Below are positions 16,136-61,100 of a stretch of 64,000 nt of DNA, piece after piece (position 1 is the stretch's first letter; each line of letters begins with the position of its first letter). Under the pieces are notes generated by a model. The model was not told where the DNA came from and made no database searches. It worked only from the letters and a program-made list of their open reading frames with translations. The position numbers and the translations under genes are program-made. The stretch is from Escherichia coli (lineage in GTDB: Bacteria > Pseudomonadota > Gammaproteobacteria > Enterobacterales > Enterobacteriaceae): the NCBI RefSeq assembly GCF_011045215.1, contig NZ_CP049202.1, one strand, 5' to 3'.

Positions 16136-16142
16136 CACCTGC

Positions 16143-17703: not shown

Positions 17704-17718
17704 AAATCAAATCCGCGA

Positions 17719-36360: not shown

Positions 36361-37008
36361 TTATCTTCCCAATATTTCTTTTACTTTAGCATATAAAGGA
36401 AGTATCTTTTCCGTTCTAATCATTTCATCCAACCAGAGATCTCTAGAACTAAATCCATATCGTTTAAATAATTTCATGGTTTTCTTCTTTGATTTAGACA
36501 CAGTGATGTTCATCTTTGCTGATGAATAATGATGGCTAAACCCTATCAGATATGGCTCAATGCCTACATATTCATCAGAGGGTACAATTAATTCATTGGA
36601 GTATTTAGACACAACAAACGATGACAGATTATCATTTGCTACCCAAATAAACCTCCAGATGAAGAAATAGCCGCATGGTGTTATAACACTTTCTATGATC
36701 ACACTCCATAACGTATTATTAAGTAATATGTCATTATTACAATTTACACCATAAATAGAAGAGCATGATTCAATCTCTGCTCTGGATAACTGTAATTTAC
36801 ATTCCAACGTTAAACTATCAAACCATTCATCACATGAATTAAAGGACGATCTGATAAGTTTTTCAAAGCAGTTATTTTCCTTAATAAAAGAACCATCCTC
36901 GAAGCGGATACATACAGGATATTTTAAAAACGAAATAGCCTCTCCAAGACTATGAGGGAAATGCAATTGACTGATGAGTGCTCTTTCTCTACGATCCATC
37001 GCACACAT
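36361..37008 (-). CDS. traJ: TraJ-type activator of the tra operon (about 215 aa from ATG with GGAGG RBS)
   Basis: AT-rich ORF between traM and traY; strong RBS at the chosen ATG; the upstream in-frame extension contains the FinP-target hairpin; identity by position, sequence is divergent. Confidence 0.6.
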
Positions 37009-37085
37009 AGGAACCTCCGTTAAGGATTCTATGGACAGTCGATGCAGGGAGTGGCTGCTCCCTGCATCGGCGATTTTCAGTTTCA
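37005..37085 (+). ncRNA. finP: FinP antisense RNA (approximate), complementary to the traJ leader
   Basis: Perfect 12-bp stem / 6-nt loop hairpin (~37040..37069) immediately upstream of the traJ RBS, where FinP is encoded in F-like plasmids. Confidence 0.4.
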
Positions 37086-37198
37086 ATTTTTAACGTGGCA
37101 TTAACCACGTAATCAATATACTAATTATTCTGATTATTGTCATCAGTTCGAACCATAAAAAACTCTGATATTTGAACAAAGTCAAAATTTATTTCCCT

Positions 37199-37582: not shown

Positions 37583-37900
37583 AACACACCTTATTTATCT
37601 TCCTAAACAAACAATATGTTTTCGTGCTCTCTATTCTTCACCTTACGACGAATCGCCATTAGATTCATCATACTAAAATTACGATTCACTATACGAATCA
37701 GCAATCATCAAATGACGAATCTAATATAGATTCACGCGCCAAGTAAATAGATGTTTTCAAAAAAATAGTCATTACTGAATCATTGACAATTCGTGATAGA
37801 TTCACTATCGAATCTATCACGAATCCCTGCAATATAATTCAAAATTATATAATATAAATACACTTCATTAATTACATGATTTAAAACACAAATCAGCAAA
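37583..37900. promoter_or_regulatory. traM promoter region with TraM binding-site-like (sbm) inverted repeats
   Basis: AT-rich region with repeated GATTCACTAT / CGAATC motifs in inverted orientation between traM and the nic site. Confidence 0.5.
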
Positions 37901-38000
37901 AACTTGTTTTTGCGTGGGGTGTGGTGCTTTTGGTGGTGAGAACCACCAACCTGTTGAGCCTTTTTGTGGAGTGGGTTAAATTATTTACGGATAAAGTCAC
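37900..38000 (+). other. oriT core; F-type nic site in GCGTGGGGTGT/GGTGCT (nick at about 37922/37923), plus-strand is the transferred strand
   Basis: Sequence TTTTTGCGTGGGGTGTGGTGCTTTTGGTGGTGAGAACCACCAACCTGTTGAGCC matches the F oriT nic region as remembered, including the GGTGGTGAGAACCACC inverted repeat. Confidence 0.8.
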
Positions 38001-38013
38001 CAGAGGTGGAAAA

Positions 38014-38523
38014 ATGAAAAAATGGATGTTAGCCATCTGCCTGATGTTTATAAATGAGATCTGCCATGCCAATGATTGCTTTGATCTTTCAGGCCGGGAT
38101 TACAAAATAGATCCTGATTTACTGAGAGCAATATCATGGAAAGAATCCCGTTACCGGGTTAATGCCATCGGTATTAATCCGGTAACGGGATATGGCAGCG
38201 GACTGATGCAGGTAGATTCCCAGCATTTTAACGAACTGGCCCGCTATGGAATTAATCCGGAACATCTGACAACAGATCCCTGCATGAACATTTATACCGG
38301 TGCTTATTATCTGGCAATAGCCTTTAAAAAATGGGGCGTCTCCTGGGAGGCCGTTGGTGCATACAATGCCGGATTCAGGAAGACCGAACGCCAGAACCAG
38401 AGACGTCTTGCCTACGCATCAGATGTTTACCGGATTTATACCGGGATAAAAAGCAGTAAAGGTATCCGGATTCCGGCCACGAAGAAATCACTTCCGGAAA
38501 TTAACAGCGTGCAGAACAATTAA
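38014..38523 (+). CDS. orf169 / gene X-type lytic transglycosylase (169 aa, signal peptide)
   Basis: Signal peptide and lytic-transglycosylase-like core; first leading-region gene beside oriT as in F; ATG with GAGGTGG RBS. Confidence 0.85.
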
Positions 38524-38768
38524 TCTTACAGACATTGTCAGATACCGGTTATGCCGCAAAAGCGGCATGGAAGGCCACACACAAAAATATCATATGAGTG
38601 ACAATACTGACTGGCCGAAGCCCCGCGAAGCGGGAACCCATCTTATATATACCCGGTAACTGCGCAGCCTCCTGCCAGACCATTTTTCGCGGGCACAATA
38701 TTTACAGACAACCGGAAAGCCAGTTGATGAAATTGAGGTATATCAGACGACACAGCGATGCCGAAGAA

Positions 38769-38821
38769 TGATAATATAAGTAAAGCCCCGAAAATTTTTC
38801 GGGGCTTTACTTATATTATCA
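38769..38821. terminator. Perfect 26-bp inverted repeat with 1-nt spacer; GC stem flanked by A/T runs, probable bidirectional terminator between convergent genes
   Basis: TGATAATATAAGTAAAGCCCCGAAAA-T-TTTTCGGGGCTTTACTTATATTATCA read directly from the sequence. Confidence 0.6.
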
Positions 38822-38941
38822 TGACTTCCACTTTCTGAACTGTTCGGCAATCACCCATAACGCCTTGTTGATTCTTATATCACCATCAATACCTGTAATG
38901 GCTCTTGTCCTAGTATTTTTCCCGGAGGCACTTTGCCCCGA

Positions 38942-39640
38942 TCATCCACCTTTTATCATATTCTCCTGAACCCGCTGCCAGGTTGTCCAGAGATCGTTCT
39001 GTTTATCCTCCCAACGATGGGGAGTAATTATCTGTTCAGGCGTCACTGGCGTTTTATTTTCATCTTCATACCTGACCATCAGTGCAGCTCTGCTAAATAA
39101 ATGTTGCTCGTCACTGTTAAGATGAATTTCTTTCATCGCCTCCATATTATCAGTGACCTTATCAAAGATACCGAGTACTTCATACGCTCCCTCGATAACC
39201 TGCTCGACAATATCACCTTTATGTGGAACGCGGATTTCGCCAAAATTATTTCCGCACACCAGGCCATTTGTGCAGACAAAACGAAAAATTCCGGGGATCA
39301 TCTGATAACTGGATGAACCATCATGTGAATTAAGCAGGATAATTTCAGGAACTTCCTGCCCGTTAATATGCCCTTCCCTGCGAAGACGTAACATATGTTT
39401 ACTGTATTCGCGACGTCCCAAATCACGAACCCGACTCTGACAGGCAAAGAATGGCTGGAAACCTTCATCACGTAACTTATTGATGATATTGATTGTTGGA
39501 ATATACGTATAACGTTCACTCCGGGACTCATGTTTATCACCGGAAAATACCGAAGGCACGAACTGCATTAATTCATCATCCGTTAAAGGACGTTCACGGC
39601 GGATGGAATTATACCGACCAAAACGGGAAGCTAATCGCAT
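38942..39640 (-). CDS. DUF932-family leading-region protein (orf273-like), possibly C-terminally truncated
   Basis: MRLASRFGRYNSIRRERPLTDDELMQF... resembles the conserved DUF932 protein next to orf169 in F-like leading regions; ATG at 39640 with AGGAG RBS; appears shorter than remembered homologues. Confidence 0.5.
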   Translation of the reverse strand: MRLASRFGRYNSIRRERPLTDDELMQFVPSVFSGDKHESRSERYTYIPTINIINKLRDEGFQPFFACQSRVRDLGRREYSKHMLRLRREGHINGQEVPEIILLNSHDGSSSYQMIPGIFRFVCTNGLVCGNNFGEIRVPHKGDIVEQVIEGAYEVLGIFDKVTDNMEAMKEIHLNSDEQHLFSRAALMVRYEDENKTPVTPEQIITPHRWEDKQNDLWTTWQRVQENMIKGG

Positions 39641-39758
39641 AACAGCTACTCCTTTATGAAAGAATAAATTTAATAAAAAATTTTTCCGCTTAATATCATC
39701 CCTCCTGGTCACCATTAACAAGATTGCAACAATCAGGAGGAATATTCATCACATCCAG

Positions 39759-40045
39759 TCAGCAGATCGCCCGGATATCGAGGCCGGCACGCTTAATCTG
39801 ACGCAGGAACTGTTTGAAGTGATCGGCTTCCGCAATGTTGATATGGCGGAACTGCGTATCCACACCCCGGCTGAGCGCGTAGCTATAGCTGAAGGCCATC
39901 TTTTCCGGGTGGCTTTTGCGATATTTTTTCAGCTCAGTCAGGCTGCTGAATTCTAGGACGTCCCACTCTTCCCCGGTGTTTTTTTCTTCCCGGCAACAAG
40001 AAGCGTGTACGACGCGGTGTTAACGTGGATATTTCGGGTACTCAT
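39759..40045 (-). pseudogene. Hypothetical leading-region gene (about 95 aa) interrupted by a frameshift at an A7 homopolymer
   Basis: ATG at 40045 with AGAGGAG RBS; reading frame breaks at GGGAAGAAAAAAACACC and resumes in another frame through to a stop; span is not a multiple of three. Confidence 0.4.
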
Positions 40046-40057
40046 CCTGCTTTCTCC

Positions 40058-40620
40058 TCTCTCTGGTTTTCAGCCCCCATCATCTTTTGAGTTTCGGGAG
40101 CCGCGGTTTTGACGTTTTGCGGGGACCTGCCTTTTGTTCCCTCCGGTATTCACCATCATCTTTTTGAGAACCTTCGCCGCAAGGGGCATCACTGCCACGG
40201 CCGGAAACGACTGTCCGGGGGCAGACCGCAAAAGTTTTTGCCTGCTTCTGGGCAAAAACTTTTGCGGGATGTGCATTTCACCCCTGGACTGGCGGAGACG
40301 GTTGTGGCTGTATCAGCCCCCGGCGACAGGGGATTAAACAGGTGAATGGCACCGGACAGAACAACGGGCAGGGACCCGCCGCAGCGACGTGAAGCGCGGT
40401 TTGCGAAACGGCGTTGCCCCTTACATCCCGGCGGCCTTTTGCCGGGATGCCGGGAGCGCAGGCCACGGCGCGACAGAGGCGGCGCGACCGGAACGGTCGC
40501 TGCAAGCCCGGGGTTTCGCGTCAGGGATGGAAGCCCGCCAGGGCGGAGACAGCTTCGCTGGCTCCGTTCACGACAGCCCGCCCCGCCAGGGGGACGCCCG
40601 GAAAAGGCATAAGCAGGAGA
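40058..40620. repeat. Frpo/ssi-like GC-rich structured element, copy 1 of a roughly 0.55-kb direct repeat
   Basis: Near-identical sequence recurs at ~45456..46000; contains internal inverted repeats (CCGCAAAAGTTTTTGCC...GGCAAAAACTTTTGCGG); lies upstream of a minus-strand leading gene. Confidence 0.55.
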
Positions 40621-40943
40621 ACAACAAAACAGACAATAATCAGGGCAGCAGTAATCAGAGTCAGAACAGGAGGAAAAAGAGAATAATCAAAGGGAAGGTG
40701 ATGTGATTTCTGACAGGTCATAAACAGAGAAGGCGGGGGAAAAGAACGGGCGCCGCAGGCGCACGTTCATCCCCGTTCCCGGAGGGAAACGGCCTTCCTG
40801 GCAGTCTGGTTGTTCATGCCCGTACAATGCCAGCAAGGAGAAAGGGGCCACCGGCGAACCAGCAGCCCCTTTATAAAGGCGCTTCAGTGCAGTCAGACCA
40901 GCATCAGCCCTGAAAAGGCGGGCCTGCGCCCGCCTCCAGGTTG

Positions 40944-41102
40944 CTACTTACCGGATTCGTAAGCCATGAAAGCCGCCACCTCCCTGTATCCGTCTCTGTA
41001 ACGAATCTCGCACAGCGATTTTCGTGTCAGATAAGTGAATATCAACAGTGTGAGACACACGATCAACACACACCAGACAAGAGAGCTGCGTGGTAGTTTC
41101 AT
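40944..41102 (-). CDS. hok: Hok-family membrane toxin (52 aa), flmA/hok type
   Basis: [52 protein letters not shown] is near-identical to Hok. Confidence 0.9.
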
Positions 41103-41160
41103 GGCCTTCTTCTCCTTGCGCAAAGCGCGGTAAGAGGCTATCCTGATGTTGTCTAAGCAT
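40948..41160 (-). CDS. mok: Mok-type overlapping reading frame (modulator of killing)
   Basis: 70-aa ORF overlapping hok in a different frame, as in hok/mok/sok loci. Confidence 0.5.
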
Positions 41161-41210
41161 GCAGGGGCCTCGTGGGTTAATGAAAAATTAACTACGGGGC
41201 TTTTGTCCTT
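41130..41210 (+). ncRNA. sok: Sok-type antisense RNA (approximate placement only)
   Basis: Inferred from the conserved hok/sok architecture; not resolved directly from sequence. Confidence 0.3.
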
Positions 41211-41376
41211 CTGCCACACAACACGGCAACAAACCACCTTCACGTCATGAGGCAGAAAGCCTCAAGCGCCGGGCACATCATAGCCCATATCCCTGCACGC
41301 TGACCACACTCACTTTTCCTGAAAATAATCCGCTCATTCAGGCTGTTTACGGGTAATCTGTGTGATTGTTGCCGCA

Positions 41377-42096
41377 TCACGCTGCCTCCCGGAGTTTGTT
41401 CGGCACCATCCACCGCTCCATCTCACGGACAGCGTGACCGGCCTCTCTTGCTGCAAGACTGGCTTCCGCAATAACCTGCCAGAACGGCATATCCTGCCAC
41501 TGCCAGCGTTCCATTCCGGACAGTGACGGAAAACGCTCGCCCCACTGCCAGAACAGGGTTTCCAGGTCATGCTCTGCCACCCGGTCACTCCAGCGTGCAT
41601 GCCAGCTTCCGACTGTTTCCGGCGAATGGAATGCCAGTTCGATTTCAGCCTGAGCGACCAGCTCCTGGTACGCACGGGCTTTCTGCTCTGCCTCCCGTGC
41701 CTGCTGGCGGCTGTACTTCTGCATGACCAGCGCGGATTTATGGCGACTGCGCTCCCTGACACGAAACCGCACCGACGGAAACAACCGCTCTGCTGCATCA
41801 CCGGGAAGGGGAAGGAGGCAGACCTCGCCCTGTATTTCAATCAGCACATCGATGACATACAGCCACTGAAGACGGTTGCCGTGCAGTTCTTCTGCGGTCA
41901 GGGACGGCATGAAAAATCGCAGGTCAGACAGCGATATCCTGCGGCTTCCGTTCAGACAGCGGAAAAACGCCCCCGCATACGGATATTCCGCCAGCGTGTT
42001 ACCCTGATGGCGGCGTTTTTCTGTCTCCGCCACCGCCCGCCATGCGGCCTGTTGCTCTGTGCTGAGCGGAACCAGTGCCTGTGAACGTACGCTCAT
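41377..42096 (-). CDS. psiA: PsiA (239 aa)
   Basis: 239 aa directly downstream of psiB; sequence as remembered for F PsiA. Confidence 0.9.
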
Positions 42097-42530
42097 ACCT
42101 GACCTCCTTCCGCCATCAGGATATGGATGATGTCGTTAACGCTGTACCCTTGCGTATCCAGTGACGCCGCCAGTGCCAGTGAATGGCTGACGGCTTCCGG
42201 TGCAAACCGCCGCTGTACCTGAACCACCGCAAACGGCTCACCACCGGCATTCACCAGAACCAGCACCCAGACCTGAGAGACATCGCCCGGTGAACATAAC
42301 GCCAGGTGAAAACGTTCGTGGGCAGGCGTGAAACGGACCTGGACGGGGAAAAAGCCGCCAAACTCGCTGCCGTACTCGCCGTTCATCGTCCAGTTATCCG
42401 GCGCATCCAGCTCCCGCATCACGGCGTGAGTCAGCTCACGGCGTTCATCACTTCCGGCAGCCCGGATATCTTCATATTCCTGTGCGTTCATGGTCTGTAA
42501 TACATTCAGGGTCAGTTCAGTTTTCATCAC
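42093..42530 (-). CDS. psiB: PsiB, plasmid SOS inhibition protein (145 aa)
   Basis: [33 protein letters not shown]... matches PsiB. Confidence 0.9.
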
Positions 42531-42581
42531 GGTATCTCCCTTGCTGCCGCCCCGTCTCCGGCGGGGCGGTGTGGTTGTTCA

Positions 42582-44540
42582 TCAGGCGGCATCAGCCAGG
42601 TTATCGGTGCGTTCAGTGGCATCCGTCTGTGGGCGTGGTGCACACATCCAGCCAGGCACCCAGCGGTTGTCTTTCATGTGGAACTCTGCATGTTCAGCCG
42701 CATCGCCTTTCTTCATCTTCTCCGCGTCCCGTGCAGCACCGGACAGTCCTGCCTCATTCAGGGCTGCGATAATCTGCGGCTTTTTCAGGTGTCCGAAGAA
42801 GTTTGCTTTTGTCGGCTGCCACCAGTCGCGCATGTGAAAGCCGATGGCGCTTTCCAGCGAATCCAGCGGACTGCGTGACGTGTGACCATACTCACGGGTC
42901 TGAACACCGTGGATGCTGCACGCAGTGCAGAAACTGAGCAGGGACAACAGCACCTCCTGACTGAGTGACAGGAACGTCGCCATGTCCCGTGACCATCCCT
43001 CCGGTAACAGGGCCGCAAGACGGGCTTTTTCTGCCATCATCGCCATGAACGCGGCACCTTCCTTCCCTGACGGCGCATCGCTGGTCAGCGAATAATGTTT
43101 ACATTCCAGGCTGATTTGTGCTGGTTTACTGTACGCTCCGCTGCCAAACACATTCAGGCAGAGCGTCCATGCCAGCAGTGCCAGAGATTTGTCCGGTTGC
43201 TGCATGAGTGCTGTCTGGACTGCCAGCGTGCGTTCGGAAGACATTTTCGTCAGCAGTGGCAGACTGATTTCCTCCACTGATGCTTTCTCCTGCACCTGTT
43301 CCGTGCGGTCAGCGTCATCAGTCGCGTCATCTTCACTGCGCAACTGCACACCACGCTGGACACATACGTTTCCATAACGCCAGGACACCACCACGCCACT
43401 TCCGGCACGCATCTCCGGCGTCCACGCCCTGACCTTCGCCATGCAGTCAATCAGCTTCATTTCTGCTTCCAGCAGGTCGGATTCCTCACACTGATTTTCC
43501 AGCGCGTCGTAACGTGCCATCAGTTCGTTCAGGCGTTCTTCTTCCGCCTCCGTCAGCACAGCTTCCGGCTCCGGCAGACTGCGGTATGTTCCGGCATCCT
43601 CACGGCAGAAACCGACAGGCTCCATACGTCCAGCACACCATTCCCAGCCTTCGGCTTCCCGAAGGTGTTCAGCAACAGCCTGGAGTTTTTCCAGCAGGGC
43701 GGCATCGAGCGCCACGCAGTCCACATAGCCACCCTCGTTGTCGCTGAACAAATCGGTGCGCAGTTCATCTGGCGAGAAGGCATCAGCCCCCACGAAGCGG
43801 AATTTACTGTTCCCCGCCACCACCACTTCACTTTCGGTCACCAGACGACGAATGGTCTGTACTTCCGGTTTTCCGCCCCATCCCGACTGACAGGCAGCTT
43901 CAAACACCTGTACCTGACGTGCGGTGTCGTTCTCCAGCGCCAGCGCCTGACAGTGCTCTGTGGTGATGCGGTCTTCTGCCAGCGCATCGAGGATGACAGG
44001 CGCAAGGTCAGCCAGTTTCAGCATTCGCTGAACGTGGCGGGGTGAATAGCCCAGCAAATCACCGATTTGTGCAGGTGTTTTGCCTTCCTGCGCCATTGCG
44101 CGGAATCCGGCAATCTGTTCGGCAGGGTGCATATCCCGACGATGACCGTTTTCAGTCATTGATGCGGCAGTCGCCAGTTCCTGCGGAATGACCTTCACAC
44201 GGACAGGCCAGTCAGCCGGAATGATGCCACGCTCTGCCAGCATGTTGAGTGCTGCCAGTCGGCGACCACCTGCGGCGACACCGTGGCGGTCACCTGGCAG
44301 GGCATGAACAACCAGATTCTGTAACAGGCCGACACCTTTAATGGAGTCCGCCAGTTCGCTGACGGACTCCGCAGAATACGGCACCGTGCGCACATTCAGC
44401 GGTGACTTAATCAGTGAGGACAGCGGCACGCTCACTTCCTCCGTCTGCGCCAGCAGGGCAGACAGGGCAGTCTCCTGCTCTTTTGACGGTTTACGGCTGG
44501 ATTTACGCTCCGTTTTTGTCTTAGACTCTGTAACTGACAT
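42582..44540 (-). CDS. ParB/Srx-like nuclease-domain protein (652 aa), conserved leading-region protein
   Basis: N-terminal ParB-like motif region (LNVRTVPYSAESVSELADSIKGVGLLQNLVV...GGRRLAAL); large C-terminal domain. Confidence 0.8.
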   Translation of the reverse strand: MSVTESKTKTERKSSRKPSKEQETALSALLAQTEEVSVPLSSLIKSPLNVRTVPYSAESVSELADSIKGVGLLQNLVVHALPGDRHGVAAGGRRLAALNMLAERGIIPADWPVRVKVIPQELATAASMTENGHRRDMHPAEQIAGFRAMAQEGKTPAQIGDLLGYSPRHVQRMLKLADLAPVILDALAEDRITTEHCQALALENDTARQVQVFEAACQSGWGGKPEVQTIRRLVTESEVVVAGNSKFRFVGADAFSPDELRTDLFSDNEGGYVDCVALDAALLEKLQAVAEHLREAEGWEWCAGRMEPVGFCREDAGTYRSLPEPEAVLTEAEEERLNELMARYDALENQCEESDLLEAEMKLIDCMAKVRAWTPEMRAGSGVVVSWRYGNVCVQRGVQLRSEDDATDDADRTEQVQEKASVEEISLPLLTKMSSERTLAVQTALMQQPDKSLALLAWTLCLNVFGSGAYSKPAQISLECKHYSLTSDAPSGKEGAAFMAMMAEKARLAALLPEGWSRDMATFLSLSQEVLLSLLSFCTACSIHGVQTREYGHTSRSPLDSLESAIGFHMRDWWQPTKANFFGHLKKPQIIAALNEAGLSGAARDAEKMKKGDAAEHAEFHMKDNRWVPGWMCAPRPQTDATERTDNLADAA

Positions 44541-44603
44541 ATATTTCTCCTTTGACCGGGATGGTTGTATGTCTGCCGGACGCGTTCCCGTCCGGCACCT
44601 CTC

Positions 44604-45439
<836 letters not shown>

Positions 45440-45455
45440 GATGTGTCTCCTTCTG

Positions 45456-46000
45456 TTGATGTTTTCAGCCCCCATCATCTTTTGAGTTTCAGGAGCCGCG
45501 GTTTGACGTTTTGCGGGGACCTGCCTTTTGTTCCCTCCGGTATTCACCATCACCTTTTTGAGAACCTTCGCCGCAAGGGGCATCACTGCCACGGCCGGAA
45601 ACGACTGTCCGGGGGCAGACCGCAAAAGTTTTTGCCTGCTTCTGGGCAAAAACTTTTGCGGGATGTGCATTTCACCCCTGGACTGGCGGAGACGGTTGTG
45701 GCTGTATCAGCCCCCGGCGACAGGGGATTAAACAGGTGAATGGCACCGGACAGAACAACGGGCAGGGCCCCGCCGCAACGACGGAGAGCGCGTGCGCGAA
45801 ACGGCGTTGCCCCTTACATCCCGGCGGCCTTTTGTCGGGATGCCGGGAGCGCAGGCCACGGCGCGACAGAGGCGGCGCGACCGGAACGGTCGCTGCAAGC
45901 CAGGGTTTCGCGTCAGGGATAGAAGCCCGCCAGGGCGGAGACAGCTCCGCTGGCTCCGTTCACGACAGCCCGCCCCGCCCCGCCAGGGGGACGCCCGGAA
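45456..46000. repeat. Frpo/ssi-like GC-rich structured element, copy 2 (direct repeat of ~40058..40620), immediately upstream of ssb
   Basis: Near-identical to copy 1 by eye with scattered substitutions and small indels. Confidence 0.55.
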
Positions 46001-46019
46001 AAGCCATAAACAGGAGAGG

Positions 46020-46075
46020 AACGGAAAGAAGAGGAAGAGGAAAAAGAAAAAGAAGAAGAAGAAGAAGAAGAAGAA
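46020..46075. repeat. Purine-rich microsatellite (GAA/AGA)n adjoining repeat copy 2
   Basis: GGAAGAGGAAAAAGAAAAAGAAGAAGAAGAAGAAGAAGAACAA read directly; absent from copy 1. Confidence 0.7.
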
Positions 46076-46252
46076 CAATAACAAGCACGGTAACCACAGA
46101 AAAATAACATCAGAAAAAAACATTCCGGACACATCACAAACAGGAAGGGTAACGGGCGACGCGTCAGCGTGGCCCGCTTCCCTTCCGGCAGGCGTCAGCC
46201 TGCCAGGGGTTTTCGCGCGGGCTGACAGGCGGCCTCCACCGCCTGCCCTGTA

Positions 46253-46444
46253 TCACCTGTTTCTGCTGCCCTGAAGGATGTACTGACCGCCGAGGAATAC
46301 AGCCTGCTGATTCGCCACAAAATCGCAGATTTCATCAACAATCTGCGCCGTGGTGAGCGGTTTCTGCCCCATTTCACGACGTCGTGCATTAATCACAGCT
46401 TTGTAATTACGCAGAATTTCGCGGGTTTCCGTGCTGATATTCAT
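46253..46444 (-). CDS. Hypothetical small leading-region protein (63 aa)
   Basis: ATG with GGGGAG RBS; start overlaps the stop of the upstream 139-aa ORF. Confidence 0.4.
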   Translation of the reverse strand: MNISTETREILRNYKAVINARRREMGQKPLTTAQIVDEICDFVANQQAVFLGGQYILQGSRNR

Positions 46445-46863
46445 TACCCGTTCTCCCCGTCCAGCGCCTGACGCATCACCCGCATAATCTCACGTTCTTC
46501 CCTGACAAATGCGTCACCGTCGCCCCCGTTCTCGCTCCCGACAGCATGGAGGCGATAAATTTCACTACCAGCCATCACCATCACTTTTTCCAGCAGCACC
46601 GCAGGGACTGTTACAAGACGGTTTACGCGCTTTTCCTCCATCAGTTCATTGACAATATCGGAAACAACTCTGTCACATGCGCCATATACAAAAGCATCGT
46701 CCAGCCGCTGCATGACGGTTTCCAGCTCATCGTCTGTCAGACTCCAGTCCTGGGCTATGTGACGCACATCCCCACGGGTCAGCACCACGGCAAAAACGCA
46801 TTCACTGTCCGGCACGTCTGTATCCAGTACATCGCGAATGATTTCTTTAACAGTACAGTACAT
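46444..46863 (-). CDS. Hypothetical leading-region protein (139 aa), apparent paralogue of the ORF at 48567..49034
   Basis: Acidic protein; shares a ...RxVTVPAxLLxxV... segment with the 155-aa ORF. Confidence 0.5.
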   Translation of the reverse strand: MYCTVKEIIRDVLDTDVPDSECVFAVVLTRGDVRHIAQDWSLTDDELETVMQRLDDAFVYGACDRVVSDIVNELMEEKRVNRLVTVPAVLLEKVMVMAGSEIYRLHAVGSENGGDGDAFVREEREIMRVMRQALDGENG

Positions 46864-46909
46864 GTTCTCGTCTCCTTTACAGGGGCGGCATTGCCGCCCC
46901 GTCCGTTAA

Positions 46910-47335
46910 TCAGTCCAGTGCCGCGTAAATCGCGTTGCATTCAGGGTGAAATTCGATGTGACGCCACAACTGCGCATCACGCATCCGGTAAAGCTGAGTC
47001 AGCCCCGCATCACCGCTGTCGTGGTACAGCCACAACTGACGGTTAATCACAAGGGAAGTCAGAATGACACCTGCGGCATCAGCACTCACAGTACGGTCAA
47101 ACCAGTTTGCACCGTTCACCATGTGGAAACGGTCGCCATCCGGCATCATGTAACCGCCACCGTCCGGCAGGCGGATGAAGTGCCAGAATCCGCCTTCATA
47201 TTCCGGCATCATTTTTTTCGCCAGCGCGTATACAGACGCTTCGGCATACAGAAAATCCTGGCCAAACAGGTAAGGCAGAAAAGACAGACGGTCGCACTCT
47301 TCAACGTTCAGAGTGACAGATTTCGCATATTGCAT
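46910..47335 (-). CDS. klcA: KlcA/ArdB-family antirestriction protein (141 aa)
   Basis: Size and conserved-looking segments ([13 protein letters not shown]...[20 protein letters not shown]...[15 protein letters not shown]) recalled from ArdB/KlcA-type proteins. Confidence 0.65.
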
Positions 47336-47751
47336 GATGTTTTCCTCCGTTGTTCACATATTCCGCGACACCGGGCGGTGCCGTGCCTCCATAAAAGCCG
47401 GGCGATAAGGCGGGGATGCAGGGGCGCAAGGGAAGCCGCAGCCTGACGCACACGGCTGACGGGAGTTGGAGGGTGAGACCGCGAAATCTGAGCGGGTGAA
47501 CGACCGGAAAATCACGGCAGACGGGAAGAAAGGACCGGGTGACCGCAGCGGCAAAGCGTACCCTTGCATCCCTGCCAGCCCGGCTAAGATGGAGGCACGG
47601 CACAGCCCGCACACGACGCTGAGGCCACATAACTGAAAAACCACAAGGCCATGCCCTGCATGGCCGGGTAAAGCGGAGCCGGCGGCGACTTCCTTTGTGC
47701 TCTGTCCGGGGACCGGCAGGAAAAAGGCGGGGATTTACCCCGCCAACGTCA

Positions 47752-48522
47752 TCATTTCCGGATTTTTGCCAGGGCATCCGCCATGCTGCGGATTTCGGCC
47801 CGGGCTTCCCGGACCACCTCCCGCAGAACACCACGGTCAAACCAGCGGCGGGGCGGTTCATCCGGTATACGCAGCACATCGCAGGCCAGCCCACTGGACA
47901 GGATATGCTCAATACAATCGCTGACCAGGTACATTTCCACCGACGAAAAACGTGCTCCCCGGTTCACGATGGCATCGAGCACCACGGGCAGGTTTTCGTC
48001 ATCTTCATCGAGCCAGCAGGGGTGATCGCTTTCCTTCACAACCAGACGAAAGCGGCGCGTCTGGCGGGTCAGCAACGTCTGACCGGTGGTGGTCAGCGCC
48101 GCCCGGATACGCCGCGCATCGTCTGCCACCTGGTAACAGATGCTTCGTATTGCATCGCGCACCGCCGCAAGTACAGCCCTGATTTCGTCTTCTGCCAGCC
48201 ACTCACCGGCATACGGGAAAGACACCTGCGTTCCGTCTGCCGGAAGTACCGGCAGCGACTGCCACTGACTGCCGGACAGAACAAGTTCCGCCCCGGTTCC
48301 GGTCAGTTTCTGAATGGCAGAGGCCAGGTGCGGCGGCAGTACGCCGCCGTGACGGTTGATAAGTAACGTCGCCAGCCGGGGCGTATCCAGCCGCACGTAA
48401 ATGCTGATCCAGCCCGGATGGTTCGGATTTCGCTGGTCAACATCCGTCTCTTCCGGCCAGCCCTGCGCCAGCAGCAGGTTACGGGCGTGGCGACAAATCA
48501 GTGCATTCAGCGTTTCGTTCAT
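47752..48522 (-). CDS. Hypothetical leading-region protein (256 aa)
   Basis: Long ORF with plausible coding character; no recognised motif. Confidence 0.5.
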
Positions 48523-48566
48523 GATTCATGGTCTCCCTGAATCGCCGCCCGCAGGCGGCGATAACA

Positions 48567-49034
48567 TCAGTCGTTTTCGCGTGTGTTGTTTTTCAGCAGG
48601 GCGCGGGCCTGATTAACCACCGCCAGTCGGCGGGTGACGCATTCCGGGACGACGAGGCCGTTATCACGGGCGGCCCACTCACGTTTCCACAGTGCCTGTT
48701 CAGCGGTCTGAATCAGGGACGCCAGCAGTTCAGCAGGGACGGTCACCTGGCGGTTTTCGCTCACGTTGCTGATAATCTCCATCACCGCGGCGGAAGAAAT
48801 ACCGGATTCAGTCCTCTGGTCTTCCGGGATGTCCTCCATGCGCGCCAGGACGGTCCTGATTTCATGATCGGTCAGAGAAATTTCCATACCGTCAGCCAGT
48901 GCCTGAATCTCTTCCGGAGACCAGATAACCAGCATCAGCGGCGTGTCTCCCGGATACTTTGCTGCCAGCTCCCGGCAGAGCGTTTCGCATGTTCCGTACA
49001 TTCTCGTCTCCTTCTCAATCTTTAAAGCACGCAT
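48567..49034 (-). CDS. Hypothetical leading-region protein (155 aa), paralogue-like to 46444..46863
   Basis: See the 139-aa ORF; acidic. Confidence 0.5.
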   Translation of the reverse strand: MRALKIEKETRMYGTCETLCRELAAKYPGDTPLMLVIWSPEEIQALADGMEISLTDHEIRTVLARMEDIPEDQRTESGISSAAVMEIISNVSENRQVTVPAELLASLIQTAEQALWKREWAARDNGLVVPECVTRRLAVVNQARALLKNNTREND

Positions 49035-49236
49035 CCAGTTCCAGAATTTCGGTATATGCCTCCATCAGGAGGCGGTTTGCGCGAAACAACGTCTGACGCA
49101 CCAGACGTTCCGGCAGGGTGTCAGCATTAAAGCTGTACCGCCGCTCCATCTCATTCATGGTTGTACGCAGGTCGCACATGGCATTGGCCACCTCCGCCAC
49201 TTCGGCGCGAAGTTTTTCGTGTCCGGCATAGTTCAT
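49015..49236 (-). CDS. Hypothetical small protein (73 aa)
   Basis: ORF directly downstream of the methyltransferase gene. Confidence 0.4.
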   Translation of the reverse strand: MNYAGHEKLRAEVAEVANAMCDLRTTMNEMERRYSFNADTLPERLVRQTLFRANRLLMEAYTEILELDACFKD

Positions 49237-49920
49237 TTACGCAGCCTCCGGCATAAACCAGTCATCATTCGCGGCCCCCTGCTGCATGGCCCGTTGCACG
49301 GCGGCAAGGCGTTGCTGCCCGGCACGGTGATACTGCTCAAGCAGCTCGATACCGATATACCGGCGTCCGGACTGGAGGGCGGCGACGCAGGTTGAGCCGC
49401 TGCCTGCAAACGGGTCCAGCACAATTGCGTTCGGGTGTGTGAAGCTCTCAATCAGCGGTTGCAGGCTGGTAACGGGCTTTTCCGTCGGGTGATGGCGATT
49501 GCCCGAATATTTCCAGCCCAGCACGTCCGGCGGCGGGTTTTGTGGCAGACGTGGACGGCCTTTTGCCAGGATGTAGGCGCATTCGTGGCGATAGCCCACA
49601 TATGCGGCCTTCGATGTGTAGTTTTTGGTGAAGACCAGGTGACCAACAACGCTGAATCCCGCATTTTTCCAGGCGGCAATAAAGCGATCGACGCGGTTCC
49701 AGCCATAGAAGCTCACCATTAACGCGTCTTTTTTCAGCACGCGGTACATCTCATTACAGGCCGGTTGCAGCCATTCATCGGTTTTATCTCCGGCGATGGT
49801 GCGCCCGGAACGGTCACGAAAACCGACGAGATATGGCGGGTCAGTTAATATGAAATCAATGGCGTTATCAGGGATACGCGTCATAACATCGATGCAGTTA
49901 CCAAGAACAAAACGGGACAT
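49237..49920 (-). CDS. Orphan N6-adenine (DPPY-motif) DNA methyltransferase (227 aa)
   Basis: DPPY motif (ILTDPPYLVGF), ParB-N/MTase-like layout; no adjacent restriction endonuclease gene recognised. Confidence 0.85.
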   Translation of the reverse strand: MSRFVLGNCIDVMTRIPDNAIDFILTDPPYLVGFRDRSGRTIAGDKTDEWLQPACNEMYRVLKKDALMVSFYGWNRVDRFIAAWKNAGFSVVGHLVFTKNYTSKAAYVGYRHECAYILAKGRPRLPQNPPPDVLGWKYSGNRHHPTEKPVTSLQPLIESFTHPNAIVLDPFAGSGSTCVAALQSGRRYIGIELLEQYHRAGQQRLAAVQRAMQQGAANDDWFMPEAA

Positions 49921-50267
49921 AATAACGCTCCTTCTCTTACAGAGGGCACCGGGAGGGCACCCCTGTGGTGCCCGTTCCCCGCTGCCTGTGGGCTGTTCAC
50001 CGCGTCCGGTAACGGGTCAGGCCGACCGTGGAATATCGCAGCCGTCGTCTTTTTGACGGCGAGAATATGCCGCGAAAGCGGCTTGAAGGGCGTTCATCAG
50101 AAAAGGGCGACAGGCTGGCGTACACTGTCACCGGTACCAGCCGGGAGCAGTAAAAGCGCCCGTCCCGTGCCCGCCGGACGCGGGACACTGACCACAGGCA
50201 GCGTTCCTGCCGCGCCGCGTCAGCCGGCGCAGTAAAAAGAGGAGCACGGCGACATCCTTTGTCGGAA

Positions 50268-50300
50268 AAGAAACGGGCGGTTGCCCGCCCGTCTCCGTCA
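50268..50300 (-). terminator. Rho-independent terminator-like hairpin after the 308-aa gene
   Basis: On the minus strand, GGGCGGGCAACCGCCCG stem-loop followed by a T-rich run. Confidence 0.5.
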
Positions 50301-50304
50301 TACT

Positions 50305-51231
50305 TCATCCGCCATAATGCGCCACATTGTCGACTATCCACGCAGGTCCGGTGACTTCCGGCAGCTCATCGTCATCTGTCGGGGAAGAGCATTCCAGTTC
50401 CCCCCACAGCACATCAACGAGCTCTCCGCGCTCATACAACTGCCAGCCACAGAAATTGCAGCCCTGTTCGGCGTACCAGTGCTCCAGCGTGCAGCCGAAA
50501 CGGCGGCTTAATTCTGCAACAACGTTGCTTTCCGGCTGACACCACGGCGTGTCGAAATCCACCTGAATGAAGTTGTCTCCCTGACGGCTGATATTCACCT
50601 CATACCTCACAGGCCACTTCACGCCATACTGTTCCGTATACCAGTGATACGCAGAAGGAACACCGTTCAGAACACCACCGTTAAAGCCATTCACTTCAAC
50701 ATCCAGGCGGGTGGGCAGAACCGTCAGCAGGTCAAACGGCATGGTTTTTTCCGGCAGTACATTGTCACACAGACGGTTCCACCACACCGATACATCCTCG
50801 TTACTCCAGAAGCCACACCAGTCACCTCTTTTGGCGGTGAAATGCACGGTGATGGTTTCTCTGACCTCATCCGGTAATCCTTCCCAGCGACGCTGGCCAG
50901 TACCACTCTGCAGCCAGAGTTCATGCAGCATCAGGCAGTTTTGCTCATCCAGCAGTACACCGTCCTGCAGGTATGTCAGCCAGCGGGTGAACGCGATATT
51001 CTCCGGCGATACAACACCACGTCCGGCAGCCGTCAGTCCGGGGCACGGTTCAAACTGCACATCTTCAGTGGTCTGCAGAAGTCCGGCACTTCCGGCCAGA
51101 AATAGCTGAATACCTTCATTTGTGGCGCGGCGATAAAGCGGTATGACTGCACCGCTGGCCAGTCGTTTAATCTCAGCGATCTGTGCCGGTTCACCAGAAA
51201 AATACATACGATTCGAGCACCAGTTTAGCAT
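50305..51231 (-). CDS. Hypothetical conserved leading-region protein (308 aa from ATG with AGGAG RBS)
   Basis: Long ORF; the track start is GTG but the internal ATG at 51231 has a strong RBS. Confidence 0.55.
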   Translation of the reverse strand: MLNWCSNRMYFSGEPAQIAEIKRLASGAVIPLYRRATNEGIQLFLAGSAGLLQTTEDVQFEPCPGLTAAGRGVVSPENIAFTRWLTYLQDGVLLDEQNCLMLHELWLQSGTGQRRWEGLPDEVRETITVHFTAKRGDWCGFWSNEDVSVWWNRLCDNVLPEKTMPFDLLTVLPTRLDVEVNGFNGGVLNGVPSAYHWYTEQYGVKWPVRYEVNISRQGDNFIQVDFDTPWCQPESNVVAELSRRFGCTLEHWYAEQGCNFCGWQLYERGELVDVLWGELECSSPTDDDELPEVTGPAWIVDNVAHYGG

Positions 51232-51583
51232 GGGAATTCTCCTCTCACATGCGGCCTCCATCAGGCCGTGCCGCACCTGTAACCGGGCGACCGCATACGA
51301 ATGCAGGTGCGGCCCCGAAGCCGCAGCGCGTGGAGGAGGAACGACGAAACGTGACCGGGTGAGGAGGCCTGCGACAGCGACACACTTGCATCGGATGCAG
51401 CCCGGTTAACGTGCCGGCACGGCCTGGGTAACCAGGTATTTTGTCCACAGAACCGTGCACAAAATGCTGTGGATAAGCTGGACACAACAGTCCACAGCAG
51501 GCATACAGCCACACTCTCAGAGAATTGAGCGTTTTTTAGTCACAATAATGACATTTGACTGTGTGTGGATTCAGTTATTAGAA

Positions 51584-56229: not shown

Positions 56230-57039
56230 TTATGCGTGTCTGTTTTTCAGCATTGTGACCGCATCGGACTCAGGCATCGAAAACTGCACCCGGTGCCGTG
56301 CAGCCACATCCAGCGCAAACACCTTCGTGTAGACCTCCGTTGAGCTGATGGACTTATGCCCCATCAGGCTCTGCAGGACCTTCAGTGGTATACCGGCATA
56401 CAGCATGTGCATCGCATGGGAATGGCGGAACGTATGTGGCGTGACCGGGACAGAGAACGTCACACCGTCAGTAGCAGCGGCGGCAACCGCCTCCCCAATC
56501 CAGGTCCTGACCGTTCTGTCCGTCACTTCCCAGATCCGCACTTTCTCTGTCCTGCCTGTTCGTTTATTACGCCGTTCCAGAGGAATTTTCAGTGTTGCCA
56601 CCATCGTCTGCAGCTGACTGACGTACCAGGAGTCGGAGAGCGGAACCAGCCGGTGAGTCTGCTGTCCGGCAGGCGTTCTTCCTGCCGTCCTGGCGGCTTT
56701 TTCGGTCCGCTGCTTCAGAGTGGCCAGCTGCACAAACGGATACGGAGGCGCAAGCGAAAAATCCCCCCGCGTCAGCGCCAGTGCTTCATTAATGCGCGCA
56801 CCGGTGTTCCACAGTGTGGCCAGCAGCATCTTGCGGCGCAGATCCGGGACGTAATGGAGCAGGGCACTCACTTCCGGAGCCAGCAGATATTTCGGCAGTT
56901 CATCATGAACCATCGACATCTGGCGAAGTGCCAGAGCTGCCGGATAATCAATGACAACAGGAAGTTGTGGAGACTGTCCGGCAGAATACACTGCCGGTAC
57001 CCTGGCTGCAGACTGGCTGTGTATAACGGAGCCTGACAT
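56230..57039 (-). CDS. resD: ResD-type tyrosine site-specific recombinase (269 aa)
   Basis: C-terminal tyrosine-recombinase motifs (HTFRHSHA...LMGHKSISSTEVYT); directly downstream of ccdB as in F. Confidence 0.85.
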   Translation of the reverse strand: MSGSVIHSQSAARVPAVYSAGQSPQLPVVIDYPAALALRQMSMVHDELPKYLLAPEVSALLHYVPDLRRKMLLATLWNTGARINEALALTRGDFSLAPPYPFVQLATLKQRTEKAARTAGRTPAGQQTHRLVPLSDSWYVSQLQTMVATLKIPLERRNKRTGRTEKVRIWEVTDRTVRTWIGEAVAAAATDGVTFSVPVTPHTFRHSHAMHMLYAGIPLKVLQSLMGHKSISSTEVYTKVFALDVAARHRVQFSMPESDAVTMLKNRHA

Positions 57040-57565
<526 letters not shown>

Positions 57566-58118
57566 AGCACACCTCTTTTTGACATACTTCGGGTATGCAT
57601 ATAAGTATATATTATTATGATGCAAAAATCAGCGCGTAAATACACATACTGTTATCTTATTTTTAGTAAACCTTATTTATTTTACCTTGCGTTATGTTAA
57701 CCAATAAAAATCAAAATCTGACTTATAAAAACAAACCGTAATTATCGCATTCCCGTTTCTGTCAGATCCGACTTTCATGAATATCACAACTTTCCGGAAG
57801 TGTACCACGCTGAGAAAATCATCATATCACTGTTTTCCGCCCCTGCGCGGCGCATCACAGGTCAGGGAGATGACACAACATATAGTGTCATTAGCAGCTG
57901 AATTCAGAACTACATGTTGTGCTGATGGGAAGATGGCGCTGTGCGGCGGGAGAGGAAGATCCGTGACCAGGAGTTTTCGGATCTTCCTGAAGAAAAAGAA
58001 AGATTAATGCCTCTATGTCATCAATTAAAATAGATTACTGTCCAAAATGCATTAATGCTTTTTTTTGATTACAATATCTTGGCACTGTTGCATAAAAGAC
58101 AGAAATCACTCACGGCAC

Positions 58119-61100
58119 TCAGACGTGATTAAACATAGCTATGACAGGATCTGTCATCTCTGCATCCAGCTCCCAGAGATGGGTCATAATACTTTTAAGC
58201 GGATCATCTGCATCTTCCCGGCAGAACGTGCAGAACATCGTATCATCAGGATAACGGAACAGACGTAAACGGCCAAAAGATGAATTCCGTACCAGTAATG
58301 AGTAATTATCCTGACAGTCCGGAACGAAATATATTGTACAGTTGCCAATCATATATTGAAGAACATGTGGCTGATATCCCTTTTCTGGTTTACTTACTCT
58401 TTTTATGCCAAGTTCATTATGTTTATCAGTGCAATATTCAAGTTCGTATAATTTCCTGGAAAAACAATCACCATACACAATGAGAGTGCAATCTTCTTCT
58501 TTTTTCATAAAAATTTTTACTTTATGAAAAAGTTCATCCAGATTGCCTATATCCTCACTCAACTGACCGCGATTAATAAAGAGTTTCCGGTGAACTGTAT
58601 TAAGTATGTTGTCTGCAATTGTTGTTGAGGGAAAAAATGTCGGATCAATTGTGCGTCCAAGTTTCTTTGCCACACTTTCCTTATCAATGCCAATATTAAT
58701 CCATTGTTTTTCCCAGCGTTCTGAAATTCCAGTATCAGGTGTAAACTCAAACAGAGAAAGAAGATGATCTTTCTTAATATCATCAACAACATTCTGAGAG
58801 ATGTTCATATCAATTCTTCTGAAAAGATCGATGTCTGCTTCTGCCTTTATAATATCTGACTTAATACTTTCTTCAAAAGCGGATATGTACATGTCCAGCG
58901 TTCTGTTAAAGAATACAACTCGCGTAGCATACTCCTCCGATGTCTTCAGAAAGTTTTCTGCTACTTCTGTTGTGCTTTTTGTCAGAGATTTCAGCGTATA
59001 AACAATATTTTTTTTATCAGAAAATGAAAAAATCCCTTCACCGATTGCAGTAACCACTTTCTGGCTGATACGTTGTTCAGATACAGACAGCATTACCGCT
59101 ATATCAGCAAATGCAGGGTATAGTGTGTTTAAATCATCAACACTACTCATATAAATCCGCCCGGAAATAACCGGGCCTTTGTTGTTTCTGGTGAGCCTCT
59201 CCACCATATGAGACAAACGTGAAAACCAGTTACTGTGCTCGTCTGCATGGCAGAAAGTGAGACGTAATATAACATCAATAATATCAGTCTGACCTACTAT
59301 TGCCGAAGGTAGTGTATTATATGCACCAGTTGGGGCGACCAGTGAAGGAGACAGTAACCGTTTGATGACAGTGAGCAAATTGACATTTTTTTGTTGTCCC
59401 AGATACCTCACCATATAAGCTGACAGGAACAGGCGGAGATCAGTCATCACATTACGCATTGTCAGGGATAATGCGGCTTTTTCGTTATACGATGCCCCCC
59501 TCAATATGCAGGACTGACAGTTGTCTGAAACAGAGTGCAATAAAAAATCTGGCGTAAGAAAAAGGCTGTGCCACAGATATTCTTCGTGATAATGATTATG
59601 AAACTGCCCCTGATTAAGCCACAGCATAAACATATCAGTACTCAGATCAGTGGCATCAATATCATCAGATGTTATTGCCGTAATAAGCATTTCCATAGAG
59701 CGAAACAAATGTGATACAAGGGCCTCAGTATAGCCAGCAGTATCAACATTATTCTTAAACGTCAGACGCAACCACATATGCCAGCTTTCCCACTCGCCGA
59801 TAAAATGTTGCAGCATTGCAACATAACGTTGCTTCTGGTTCACTGATAACGCCTTGTTTCCAACATTCCAGTCAATCAGTATCTGCCAGATATCACACTG
59901 GGACTGAAGAGCCTGTTGCAACTCTCCGGTTCTGTCTTCTCCCCGATACCGGTAAAAAGACTGAGGAAGATGTATGATCTTTCGAAAATACGTAGATGTG
60001 GTATCCAGTGTTTTCACCACTTCTTCTGCAAGACGGTAGAAATCATTATGAAAAGACTGGCTTAAACTTTGTGGAAAAAATGAAATGGATACATCATCAA
60101 TATAATTTTTATCACCATACTGGAAACATCTTTTCAGTGTAATAAAGGTCGAAACAAGTCTGTCTGCAGCTTCCTCAAACGCCCCCAGATTTCGTTCATC
60201 CAGAGCATCATAAATTTCCCCATAAAAACCTCTGGTGAAATTTAAAAAATTTGTTTTTTCCCATTTGCTTCCACGGATAAAACAGAGCTTAAACAGCTTC
60301 TCCCAGATAGCATTATATCTGATACCGGTTGTAGCCAGAATAACCACTTCGCTGTTATGTATCCCCCACCCAGGTAAGACTCTGATTCTTGCAGGTCCCG
60401 TTCCGACAGGTTTTAATCTCCTGAGGAGAAACAATAATGGAAGTGTATAGATATCTCTCACACATTCATCCATTTTAAGTTTTAACTTCAGAAGATCAGA
60501 CTTTTCCTTCTCCGGAGAATCATAAACATCAACAGAGACATTCAGCCGTCCCATTTGGTTAATATATCTCCCAGGAAGAGCCAACCAGTTTTTTACCATT
60601 GCTGTTCTGATATGTTGCGCCACGACTTTTGAAATAAAATACTTAAGCATAATTCGATCACGCCGGCGATCATCCAGAACATTCAGGCTCTGAATAAAAA
60701 ACCAGATAGACAAACCAATATTCATGATCATCCAGATTATTGCCACTACAACAAGGCAAATATCAAGGTATTTATCCCCCCGGGCAGACAAAAGTTCACT
60801 CACCAGAATAAATGCAGCAAGGGAAAGACCGCTCAGACCTGCAAACATGTATCCTGAGTAAAGCTGATAGGCCGACTGGATATGCTCACGTGTCGATTTT
60901 TTCTGAAAAAGGACGCTGATCAGACCGACAACTAATGGAAATACAATACCAATGATGGTTAATTGTCCACCCAGCAGATCTGAGAGTCCATCTGGAAGCT
61001 TTTCAATCCCCTTAAAATACTGCCTGCCAAATGGAGCCAAGACCGGCCTCAGATACAAACCAGCAAGTACAATCATTATTGCACCAACCCAGAGAATCAA

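Follow-up and report, generated by a model that had tools for sequence, protein, structure and literature searches.

The two direct repeats carried by the window (the whole 64,000-nt stretch of DNA that was analysed) are very probably Frpo1 and Frpo2, the class 1 (ssp1a/ssp1b, ssiD-type) single-stranded DNA (ssDNA) promoters of an F-like plasmid, as judged from their sequence and setting. Both copies align end to end with the reference ssiD/Frpo sequence (D90178, taken from supplement 4 of PMC11541004), at 95.2% identity for copy A and 93.2% for copy B, and they occupy the positions and orientations of F Frpo1 and Frpo2, which bears out the preliminary description of this DNA, where the repeats were read as Frpo/ssi single-strand promoters and a comparison with the F Frpo sequence was proposed. 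The element, its mechanism, its duplication in F and the possibility of a deletion between the copies have all been published (PMC9849209, PMC11541004, PMC12672017). Our additions are the mosaic structure of copy B, natural deletion derivatives that retain a chimeric repeat, and the defective ygeA and ygeB genes that lie behind an intact Frpo1; they extend published ideas (PMC9849209, PMC3817090) and may interest plasmid specialists. The features discussed are collected in Table 1.

Table 1. Coordinates of the repeats, the neighbouring genes and related elements (window positions unless an accession is given)
Feature	Position	Strand	Basis or remark
F-type oriT nic-site motif GGGGTGTGGTGCTTTT	37916-37931	+	Exact match, found once
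ssiE homologue (F D90180)	38518-38706	+	97.9%; between SLT gene and ygeB
ygeB (DUF932) orthologue, second gene downstream of copy A	38819-39640	-	Nonsense codon
ygeA orthologue, first gene downstream of copy A	39759-40045	-	Frameshifted; alignment with F
Repeat copy A, whole Frpo1-bearing intergenic module	40066-40625	+	Repeat search, alignment
'MHIPQKF...' ORF, 68 aa, inside hairpin arms	40070-40276	-	Spurious
Copy A ssiD/Frpo homologue (D90178)	40074-40423	+	Full length, 95.2%
Rival 5'-arm promoter candidate, TTGAGA-17-CATCAC	40164-40192	+	8/12 consensus match
Candidate promoter, 3' arm of hairpin A, TGGACT-17-CTGTAT	40285-40313	+	Pairing probabilities; inferred
Distal part of repeat beyond ssiD	40424-40625	+	70.8% GC
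Rest of block between copies (hok/sok to DUF905)	40944-44837	-	
sok (with hok, in block between copies)	41100-41271		Rfam
psiA	41377-42096	-	NCBIfam PsiA
psiB	42093-42527	-	NCBIfam PsiB
ParB-like gene	42582-44540	-	NCBIfam ParB
DUF905 gene (in block between copies)	44604-44837	-	Annotation of related plasmids
Plasmid ssb, first gene downstream of copy B	44900-45439	-	NCBIfam NF010292, 378 bits
Repeat copy B, whole Frpo2-position module upstream of ssb	45461-46022	+	Repeat search, alignment
Copy B ssiD/Frpo homologue (D90178)	45469-45816	+	Full length, 93.2%; also forms the hairpin of copy A
Copy B equivalent of 3'-arm candidate	45679-45707	+	By equivalence
Class 2 ssDNA promoter hairpin (ssp2/'Frpo3')	~47365-47699	+	96.3% to F 56371-56750
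Deletion junctions	NZ_CP038792.1 5001-6303; CP057797.1 3001-4303		Natural IncF plasmids; single chimeric repeat between ygeA and DUF1380/antirestriction

Extent and composition of the repeat

The preliminary description had claimed a near-identical direct repeat of ~0.55 kb, and pairwise alignment shows it to be real: in a global alignment, copies A and B are identical in 542 of 566 columns (95.8%), and gaps occupy 10 positions. The repeat is ~560 nt long and its copies lie 5.39 kb apart; a repeat search of the window returned collinear blocks that are 96-98% identical, with start-to-start spacings of 5392-5397 nt. When the copies were aligned with their flanks using MAFFT, similarity set in abruptly at 40066/45461 and decayed after ~40625/46022, placing the left ends within ~8 nt of where they had first been drawn and the right end of copy B at 46022 rather than 46000. 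A sensitive blastn search of the 64-kb window found no third copy, and an Rfam scan of positions 30000-55000 returned no match above the gathering score in either repeat. The characterization of the copies as GC-rich, with strong internal inverted repeats, is also accurate, as they have G+C contents of 62.5% and 63.0%, as compared to 50.3% for the window, and form stable folds. Each copy indeed lies immediately upstream of a minus-strand gene, copy A of the frameshifted ygeA orthologue and copy B of ssb; the copies end ~20 nt from the respective start codons (40045 and 45439), and a GGAG-type ribosome-binding site is located between each copy and the downstream start codon.

The part of the repeat that extends beyond ssiD folds marginally better than shuffled sequence (z -2.3), and the evidence that this modelled fold is selected is weak. 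At least 5000 plasmid records match this distal part, in many cases over its first 102 nt only, and stretches of it fall inside the ColIb-P9 ssi definitions and Samuel's candidates. The high G+C content, the many hairpins and the lack of an assigned role for the distal 200 nt might suggest that the element terminates transcription or acts as an insulator, or that it is simply inert intergenic DNA that has been duplicated, and a terminator-like site is located just outside the repeat (40762-40750, - strand). However, the sole terminator-like site inside the repeat (40380-40367, - strand) has a weak 5-pair stem, and chance alone would give 1.6 such sites in 1.1 kb, not far from the three found. 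The full-length match to a characterised promoter and the covariation described below argue against inertness, and published F data already demonstrate initiation; we therefore consider a terminator or inert segment very improbable.

Plasmid context and the transferred strand

The Rfam scan of positions 30000-55000 detected the traJ 5'UTR together with FinP at 37002-37110, as well as sok. These matches identify an F-like plasmid of the IncF group. Positions 37879-51514 are collinear with F (NC_002483 66201-52569) at 94.7% identity over 13.7 kb, and the closest relative found, pSTEC005 (NZ_CP041438.1), is near-identical to the window (99.7% over 15.9 kb). In pSTEC005 psiA and umuC are frameshifted (4035-4797 and 15003-16273), whereas psiA is intact in the window, so the two plasmids differ in their sets of leading-region lesions.

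The F TraI protein nicks the strand that bears the nic motif, and this strand is then transferred in the 5' to 3' direction. As the F-type motif in the window lies on the + strand, the + strand is the transferred strand (T-strand) and higher coordinates enter the recipient first. Copies A and B are positioned 2.1 and 7.5 kb downstream of the motif, respectively, and the genes downstream of both copies are all on the - strand, such that the T-strand is their template.

Relationship to Frpo1, Frpo2 and other ssDNA promoters

The F plasmid carries a pair of these elements, Frpo1 and Frpo2, that are 92% identical and ~5 kb apart (Couturier 2023, PMC9849209). Copy A is the positional orthologue of F Frpo1 (also called Frpo, ssiD or ssp1a; D90178; NC_002483 ~63656-64003), and the whole module is 96.0% identical over 568 nt to its positional equivalent in F (63453-64019), which is situated upstream of ygeA and ygeB. 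The two share their flanks (ygeA downstream, hok/flm upstream), strand and hairpin, and differ by a small number of substitutions that affect the apical stem and the bubble; they also differ in what lies behind them, as ygeA is frameshifted and ygeB contains a nonsense codon in the plasmid studied here. The positional equivalent of copy B is F Frpo2 (ssp1b; NC_002483 ~58065-58629), which is located upstream of ssb, but copy B is only 89.2% identical to F Frpo2 as compared to 92.9% to F Frpo1, and its core contains Frpo1 alleles. When Frpo1 or Frpo2 is deleted from F, ygeA, ssb and yfjA are no longer expressed early in transconjugants (PMC9849209), and zygotic induction of the downstream genes has been demonstrated by microscopy and RNA-seq (PMC9849209, PMC12672017). 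An anti-CRISPR gene driven by Frpo is active only when it is on the T-strand in the leading region (Samuel 2024, PMC11541004), and the start sites of class 1 promoters have been mapped by 5'RACE (Wen 2025, PMC12672017). The class 1 and ssp1a/ssp1b names follow later work (PMC12672017; bioRxiv 2026.01.09.698686).

More distant relatives are found in the IncI1 plasmids ColIb-P9/pESBL, which have three class 1 copies each (ssi1-ssi3). These resemble copies A and B in their hairpin architecture, which is maintained by compensatory changes, in a conserved GTCCGGGGG...CCCCTGGAC stem and an A/T-rich apical stem, and in their location upstream of leading genes. They are only ~75-77% identical to the repeat over a ~110-nt core, and their outer arms are not alignable by BLAST.

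A second type of hairpin is present in the window at ~47365-47699 and corresponds, by sequence comparison, to the published class 2 (ssp2, 'Frpo3') ssDNA promoter. It is 82.8% identical to Samuel's 'Frpo prime 4', has arms at 47372-47403 and 47578-47609 (-93.2 kcal/mol, z -4.2), and is located upstream of an antirestriction (ArdB/KlcA-like) ORF at 46910-47335 (- strand). It resembles the repeats in forming a long hairpin on the T-strand of the same leading region, but lacks sequence similarity to them, and its 3' arm bears an obvious -10-like box, TAAGAT. Replication-roadblock activity has been reported for class 2 and not for class 1 (bioRxiv 2026.01.09.698686). A class 2 or class 3 identity (ssp2 and ssp3, the hairpins upstream of ardB/klcA and of methylase genes, respectively) was rejected for the repeats themselves, as the class 2 type sequence (Frpo' 4) matches only 47365-47699. 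An identity with ssiE, the second ssi sequence of the F leading region, was rejected because ssiE maps to a separate site.

A conserved hairpin forms on the transferred strand

Folding the + strand as ssDNA, a check that had been proposed along with the promoter reading, yielded a very stable long hairpin. The predicted energies are -161.3 kcal/mol (z -8.8) for copy A and -154.7 kcal/mol (z -7.1) for a 570-nt fold of copy B. The 380-nt core of copy A alone folds at -107.1 kcal/mol (z -9.3) and is predicted to form a single long imperfect hairpin of ~340 nt (~40073-40412) that is capped by an apical loop at 40243-40250. The - strand is ~19 kcal/mol less stable than the whole + strand copy (-142.5 against -161.3 kcal/mol; z -5.5 for the - strand), as would be expected were the functional strand to tolerate G-T pairs; that it nevertheless folds well is not surprising, as the complement of a hairpin must do so.

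To follow the hairpin across relatives, an alignment of 10 homologues was used that comprised the two window copies, F Frpo1, F Frpo2, ColIb-P9 ssi1-3, a Serratia element and two elements from insect metagenomes. RNAalifold recovered the same hairpin from this alignment, with 64 consensus pairs, and 93.4% of the cells are paired across the 10 homologues. Compensatory changes are seen at 19 pairs, as compared to 3-8 when the partners are slid by 1-3 columns, and the covariation score of 0.281 (at most 0.093 for the comparison) was reached by none of 500 shuffles. The compensatory pairs and the covariation score indicate that selection maintains the hairpin, as modelled, in IncF and IncI elements and in more distant ones.

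Candidate promoter elements within the hairpin

A consensus scan of positions 39700-40800 found no conventional duplex sigma-70 promoter, which would fit an element that is active only as ssDNA. Two candidate arrangements are located around a mismatch bubble in which residues 40187-40193 lie opposite residues 40308-40315. In the first, on the 3' arm of hairpin A, the TGGACT hexamer (40285-40290) is fully paired in the predicted fold (probability ~1.0) and is followed by a 17-nt paired spacer helix, whereas the CTGTAT hexamer (40308-40313) is partly unpaired because it falls within the bubble. The TGGAC sequence of the first hexamer is kept in all 10 homologues, and 7 of the 11 pairs in the spacer helix are compensatory, accounting for 7 of the 19 such pairs in the hairpin. 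The class 2 hairpin, as read from its sequence, has the same geometry, with its TAAGAT box on the 3' arm. Two features count against this candidate: its -10 hexamer lacks the usual A at position 2, and in F Frpo2 the alignment places 20 nt between TGGACA and the bubble, as compared to 17 nt here. The second arrangement, on the 5' arm, matches the consensus at 8 of 12 positions, but its -35 hexamer is mostly unpaired in the predicted fold. The hexamers of both candidates are weak, as the best linear matches on the T-strand reach 8/12, neither candidate is near consensus and none passes the consensus scan. On balance, we modestly favour the 3'-arm arrangement (TGGACT, 17-nt helix and CTGTAT in the bubble) as the candidate promoter. 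The two candidates point in opposite directions within the hairpin; a promoter on the 3' arm would face the hairpin base and use the 5' arm as its template, and with either arrangement the net transcript would run toward lower coordinates, into ygeA or ssb.

Proposed mechanism and the role of priming

The Frpo homology of copies A and B, their position and strand, the hairpin and its covariation are direct observations on this DNA, and provide the basis for the following model. During conjugation, the + strand would enter the recipient 5' to 3' from the nick at ~37925. While still single-stranded, each copy would fold into the ~340-nt imperfect hairpin, whose stem would mimic duplex promoter DNA, allowing the host sigma-70 RNA polymerase to bind it and to transcribe the + strand template toward lower coordinates. 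Copy B would then drive ssb, the DUF905 gene (yfjA), the ParB-like gene (yfjB), psiB and psiA, while copy A would drive ygeA and ygeB. The same transcripts could prime synthesis of the complementary strand, and once that strand is made the hairpin would be lost and the promoters switched off. As a by-product, the similarity of the two copies would allow gene conversion between them and loss of the intervening block. For these particular copies, RNA polymerase recruitment, zygotic induction, priming and switch-off are proposed by analogy with F and ColIb-P9, for which transcription from the ssDNA form has been documented in vitro and in vivo (PMC9849209, PMC12672017, PMC7690428); in vivo use as a primer has also been reported (bioRxiv 2026.01.09.698686).

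A rival reading is that the hairpins are mainly ssi signals, at which RNA polymerase lays down the primer for complementary-strand DNA synthesis, with gene expression being secondary. D90178 was itself first isolated as ssiD, a priming signal, and in the summary of Masai and Arai's work given in PMC7690428, the RNA remains paired to the DNA and serves DNA polymerase III as a primer. Moreover, transcription-dependent early conversion has been reported near ssp1/Frpo (bioRxiv 2026.01.09.698686), and copy A is well conserved in this plasmid even though ygeA and ygeB are defective. However, priming and promoter roles are not mutually exclusive, and a start codon with a ribosome-binding site follows each copy at a distance of ~20 nt. 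A mainly priming function is thus possible, but we hold it tentatively and retain the ssDNA promoter as the preferred reading.

Genes adjacent to the copies

Both genes behind Frpo1 appear to be defective in this plasmid. The ygeA orthologue has a run of seven A residues where F has eight, producing a -1 frameshift; the A7 allele is shared with pSTEC005, in which the gene is annotated as a 'frameshifted' pseudogene, and it may reflect a genuine lesion, a run that is prone to slippage, or a sequencing error in the homopolymer. In the ygeB orthologue, a TTA to TGA change at codon 233 (38942-38944) removes the last 41 residues; this codon specifies Leu in F, pSTEC005 and NZ_CP061340.1. With both genes defective, any role of copy A in expression is of no practical consequence in this plasmid. 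It is somewhat curious that both should be inactivated while Frpo1 is intact, given that the genes behind Frpo1 were those that mattered for the conjugation frequency of F (PMC9849209).

The repeat also contains the start of an open reading frame that encodes 68 residues within the hairpin arms of copy A; in copy B, its ATG runs in frame into ssb to produce a 256-aa ORF (44900-45670, - strand). PGAP annotates the 68-aa ORF as a hypothetical protein (WP_040101106.1), and in some GenBank records it is labelled as a single-stranded DNA-binding protein or 'ssb', which could be taken to mean that the repeat encodes a small protein. The ORF, however, has no NCBIfam match, its frame stops after 12 codons in F Frpo2, and its location in the hairpin arms means that its apparent conservation is explained by DNA structure. 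A coding function is extremely unlikely, and the ORF was rejected as an annotation artefact, in agreement with the initial view that the identical ORF starts in the two copies are spurious.

Occurrence and significance

A 563-nt query matched at least 5000 PLSDB plasmids (from Escherichia, Klebsiella, Salmonella and Shigella), and the element is present in 3759 of 5426 complete E. coli genomes (about 70%), at a median of three places per genome. The published descriptions of the Frpo element include that of Masai and Arai (1997). A survey put the number of Frpo homologues at 13,089, from 6,006 conjugative elements (Samuel 2024, PMC11541004). Promoters of this type allow SOS-inhibition, ssDNA-binding and anti-defence genes to be expressed in the first minutes after entry into a host, and this early expression bears on the spread of resistance plasmids. 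The locus described here is a textbook instance that involves no new principle, and can serve as a positive control for recognising such elements from raw sequence.

Recombination between the copies

F Frpo1 and Frpo2 differ at 120 alignment columns, which were used as informative sites to trace the ancestry of the window copies. Copy A carries Frpo1-type alleles apart from a short distal patch of the Frpo2 type, whereas copy B has Frpo2 alleles in its ssb-proximal flank and distal end and Frpo1 alleles throughout the hairpin core. Such mosaic alleles are the signature of gene conversion, and explain why copies A and B are 95.8% identical in this plasmid as compared to 92% for the F pair. Copy B is thus a gene-conversion mosaic, in which a conversion tract would have overwritten the Frpo2 hairpin with the Frpo1 version. 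With a query containing ssb and the hairpin, both types of ssb-linked core were often recovered from E. coli plasmids, at identities of ~96-97% and ~91%, respectively. Separate searches of E. coli genomes with Frpo1- and Frpo2-type cores gave no clean counts per type, as megablast catches both.

It had also been suggested that the repeats could delete or invert the intervening hok/psiAB/ParB-like block. Deletion is seen in natural plasmids, whereas inversion was rejected on principle, since the repeats are direct and would give deletion or duplication. A query representing the deletion junction was built from ygeA, the repeat and the sequence upstream of copy B; plasmid records match it without interruption over 1303 nt, with an identity of 96-97%. 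The junction is present in 86 of the 5000 best PLSDB records and in 63 records (62 genomes) out of the 5467 that matched among complete E. coli genomes. In pDW54_1 and pRHB14-C22_2 the order is traM-SLT-ygeB-ygeA-repeat-DUF1380-antirestriction, and hok, psiA, psiB, the ParB-like gene, the DUF905 gene and ssb are all absent. The single repeat of these two plasmids is a chimera that has the alleles of Frpo1 toward ygeA and those of Frpo2 at the opposite end, the pattern that homologous recombination should produce. If this interpretation is correct, a crossover between the copies has removed the ssb-psiAB-hok block from ~1-2% of sequenced relatives. A possible deletion between the copies in F was raised by Couturier (PMC9849209), and in IncI plasmids a hybrid Frpo repeat marks a 9.7-kb indel (Venturini 2013, PMC3817090); the natural deletion derivatives are accordingly a confirmation of a published idea, not a discovery.

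These observations could be taken further, to suggest that the repeats are kept chiefly as portable homology for the gain, loss and exchange of leading-region cassettes, with promoter activity being incidental. The mosaic of copy B, with its Frpo2-type flanks and Frpo1-type core at every informative site, would agree with this, as would the junction counts in PLSDB and E. coli with their chimeric 1...1/2...2 repeat, the hybrid repeat at the IncI indel, and the third copy in NZ_CP061340.1, which bounds a methyltransferase/DUF3560 cassette. Recombination is, however, automatic for any 0.5-kb repeat, and the compensatory changes, the strand bias and the fixed position beside start codons argue for selection on the folded T-strand, not on homology. 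We therefore regard maintenance chiefly as homology as unlikely, and selection on the ssDNA promoter hairpin remains the preferred reading. A more speculative proposal, for which we claim limited confidence, is that Frpo modules are a small multigene family that undergoes concerted evolution and supplies the recombination joints of the leading region, with Frpo1 being kept for a use other than expression. Were this the case, the intact copy A that accompanies the dead ygeA and ygeB genes would suggest that Frpo1 is kept for another purpose, for instance to prime the complementary strand or to homogenise the other copy.

Two further plasmids illustrate the variety of rearrangements at the repeat. 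In the NDM-4 plasmid NZ_CP095651.1 (7460-10015), a group II intron (ltrA) is inserted at repeat position ~459, and the ssb-psiAB-hok block is also absent; many other plasmids match the repeat only up to position ~459, the site of this intron. NZ_CP061340.1 contains a third class 1 copy (17680-18222, ~91%) that is located 3.3 kb beyond copy B, and the cassette that it bounds encodes a SAM-dependent methyltransferase, a DUF3560 protein and a small ORF, and is absent from the window.
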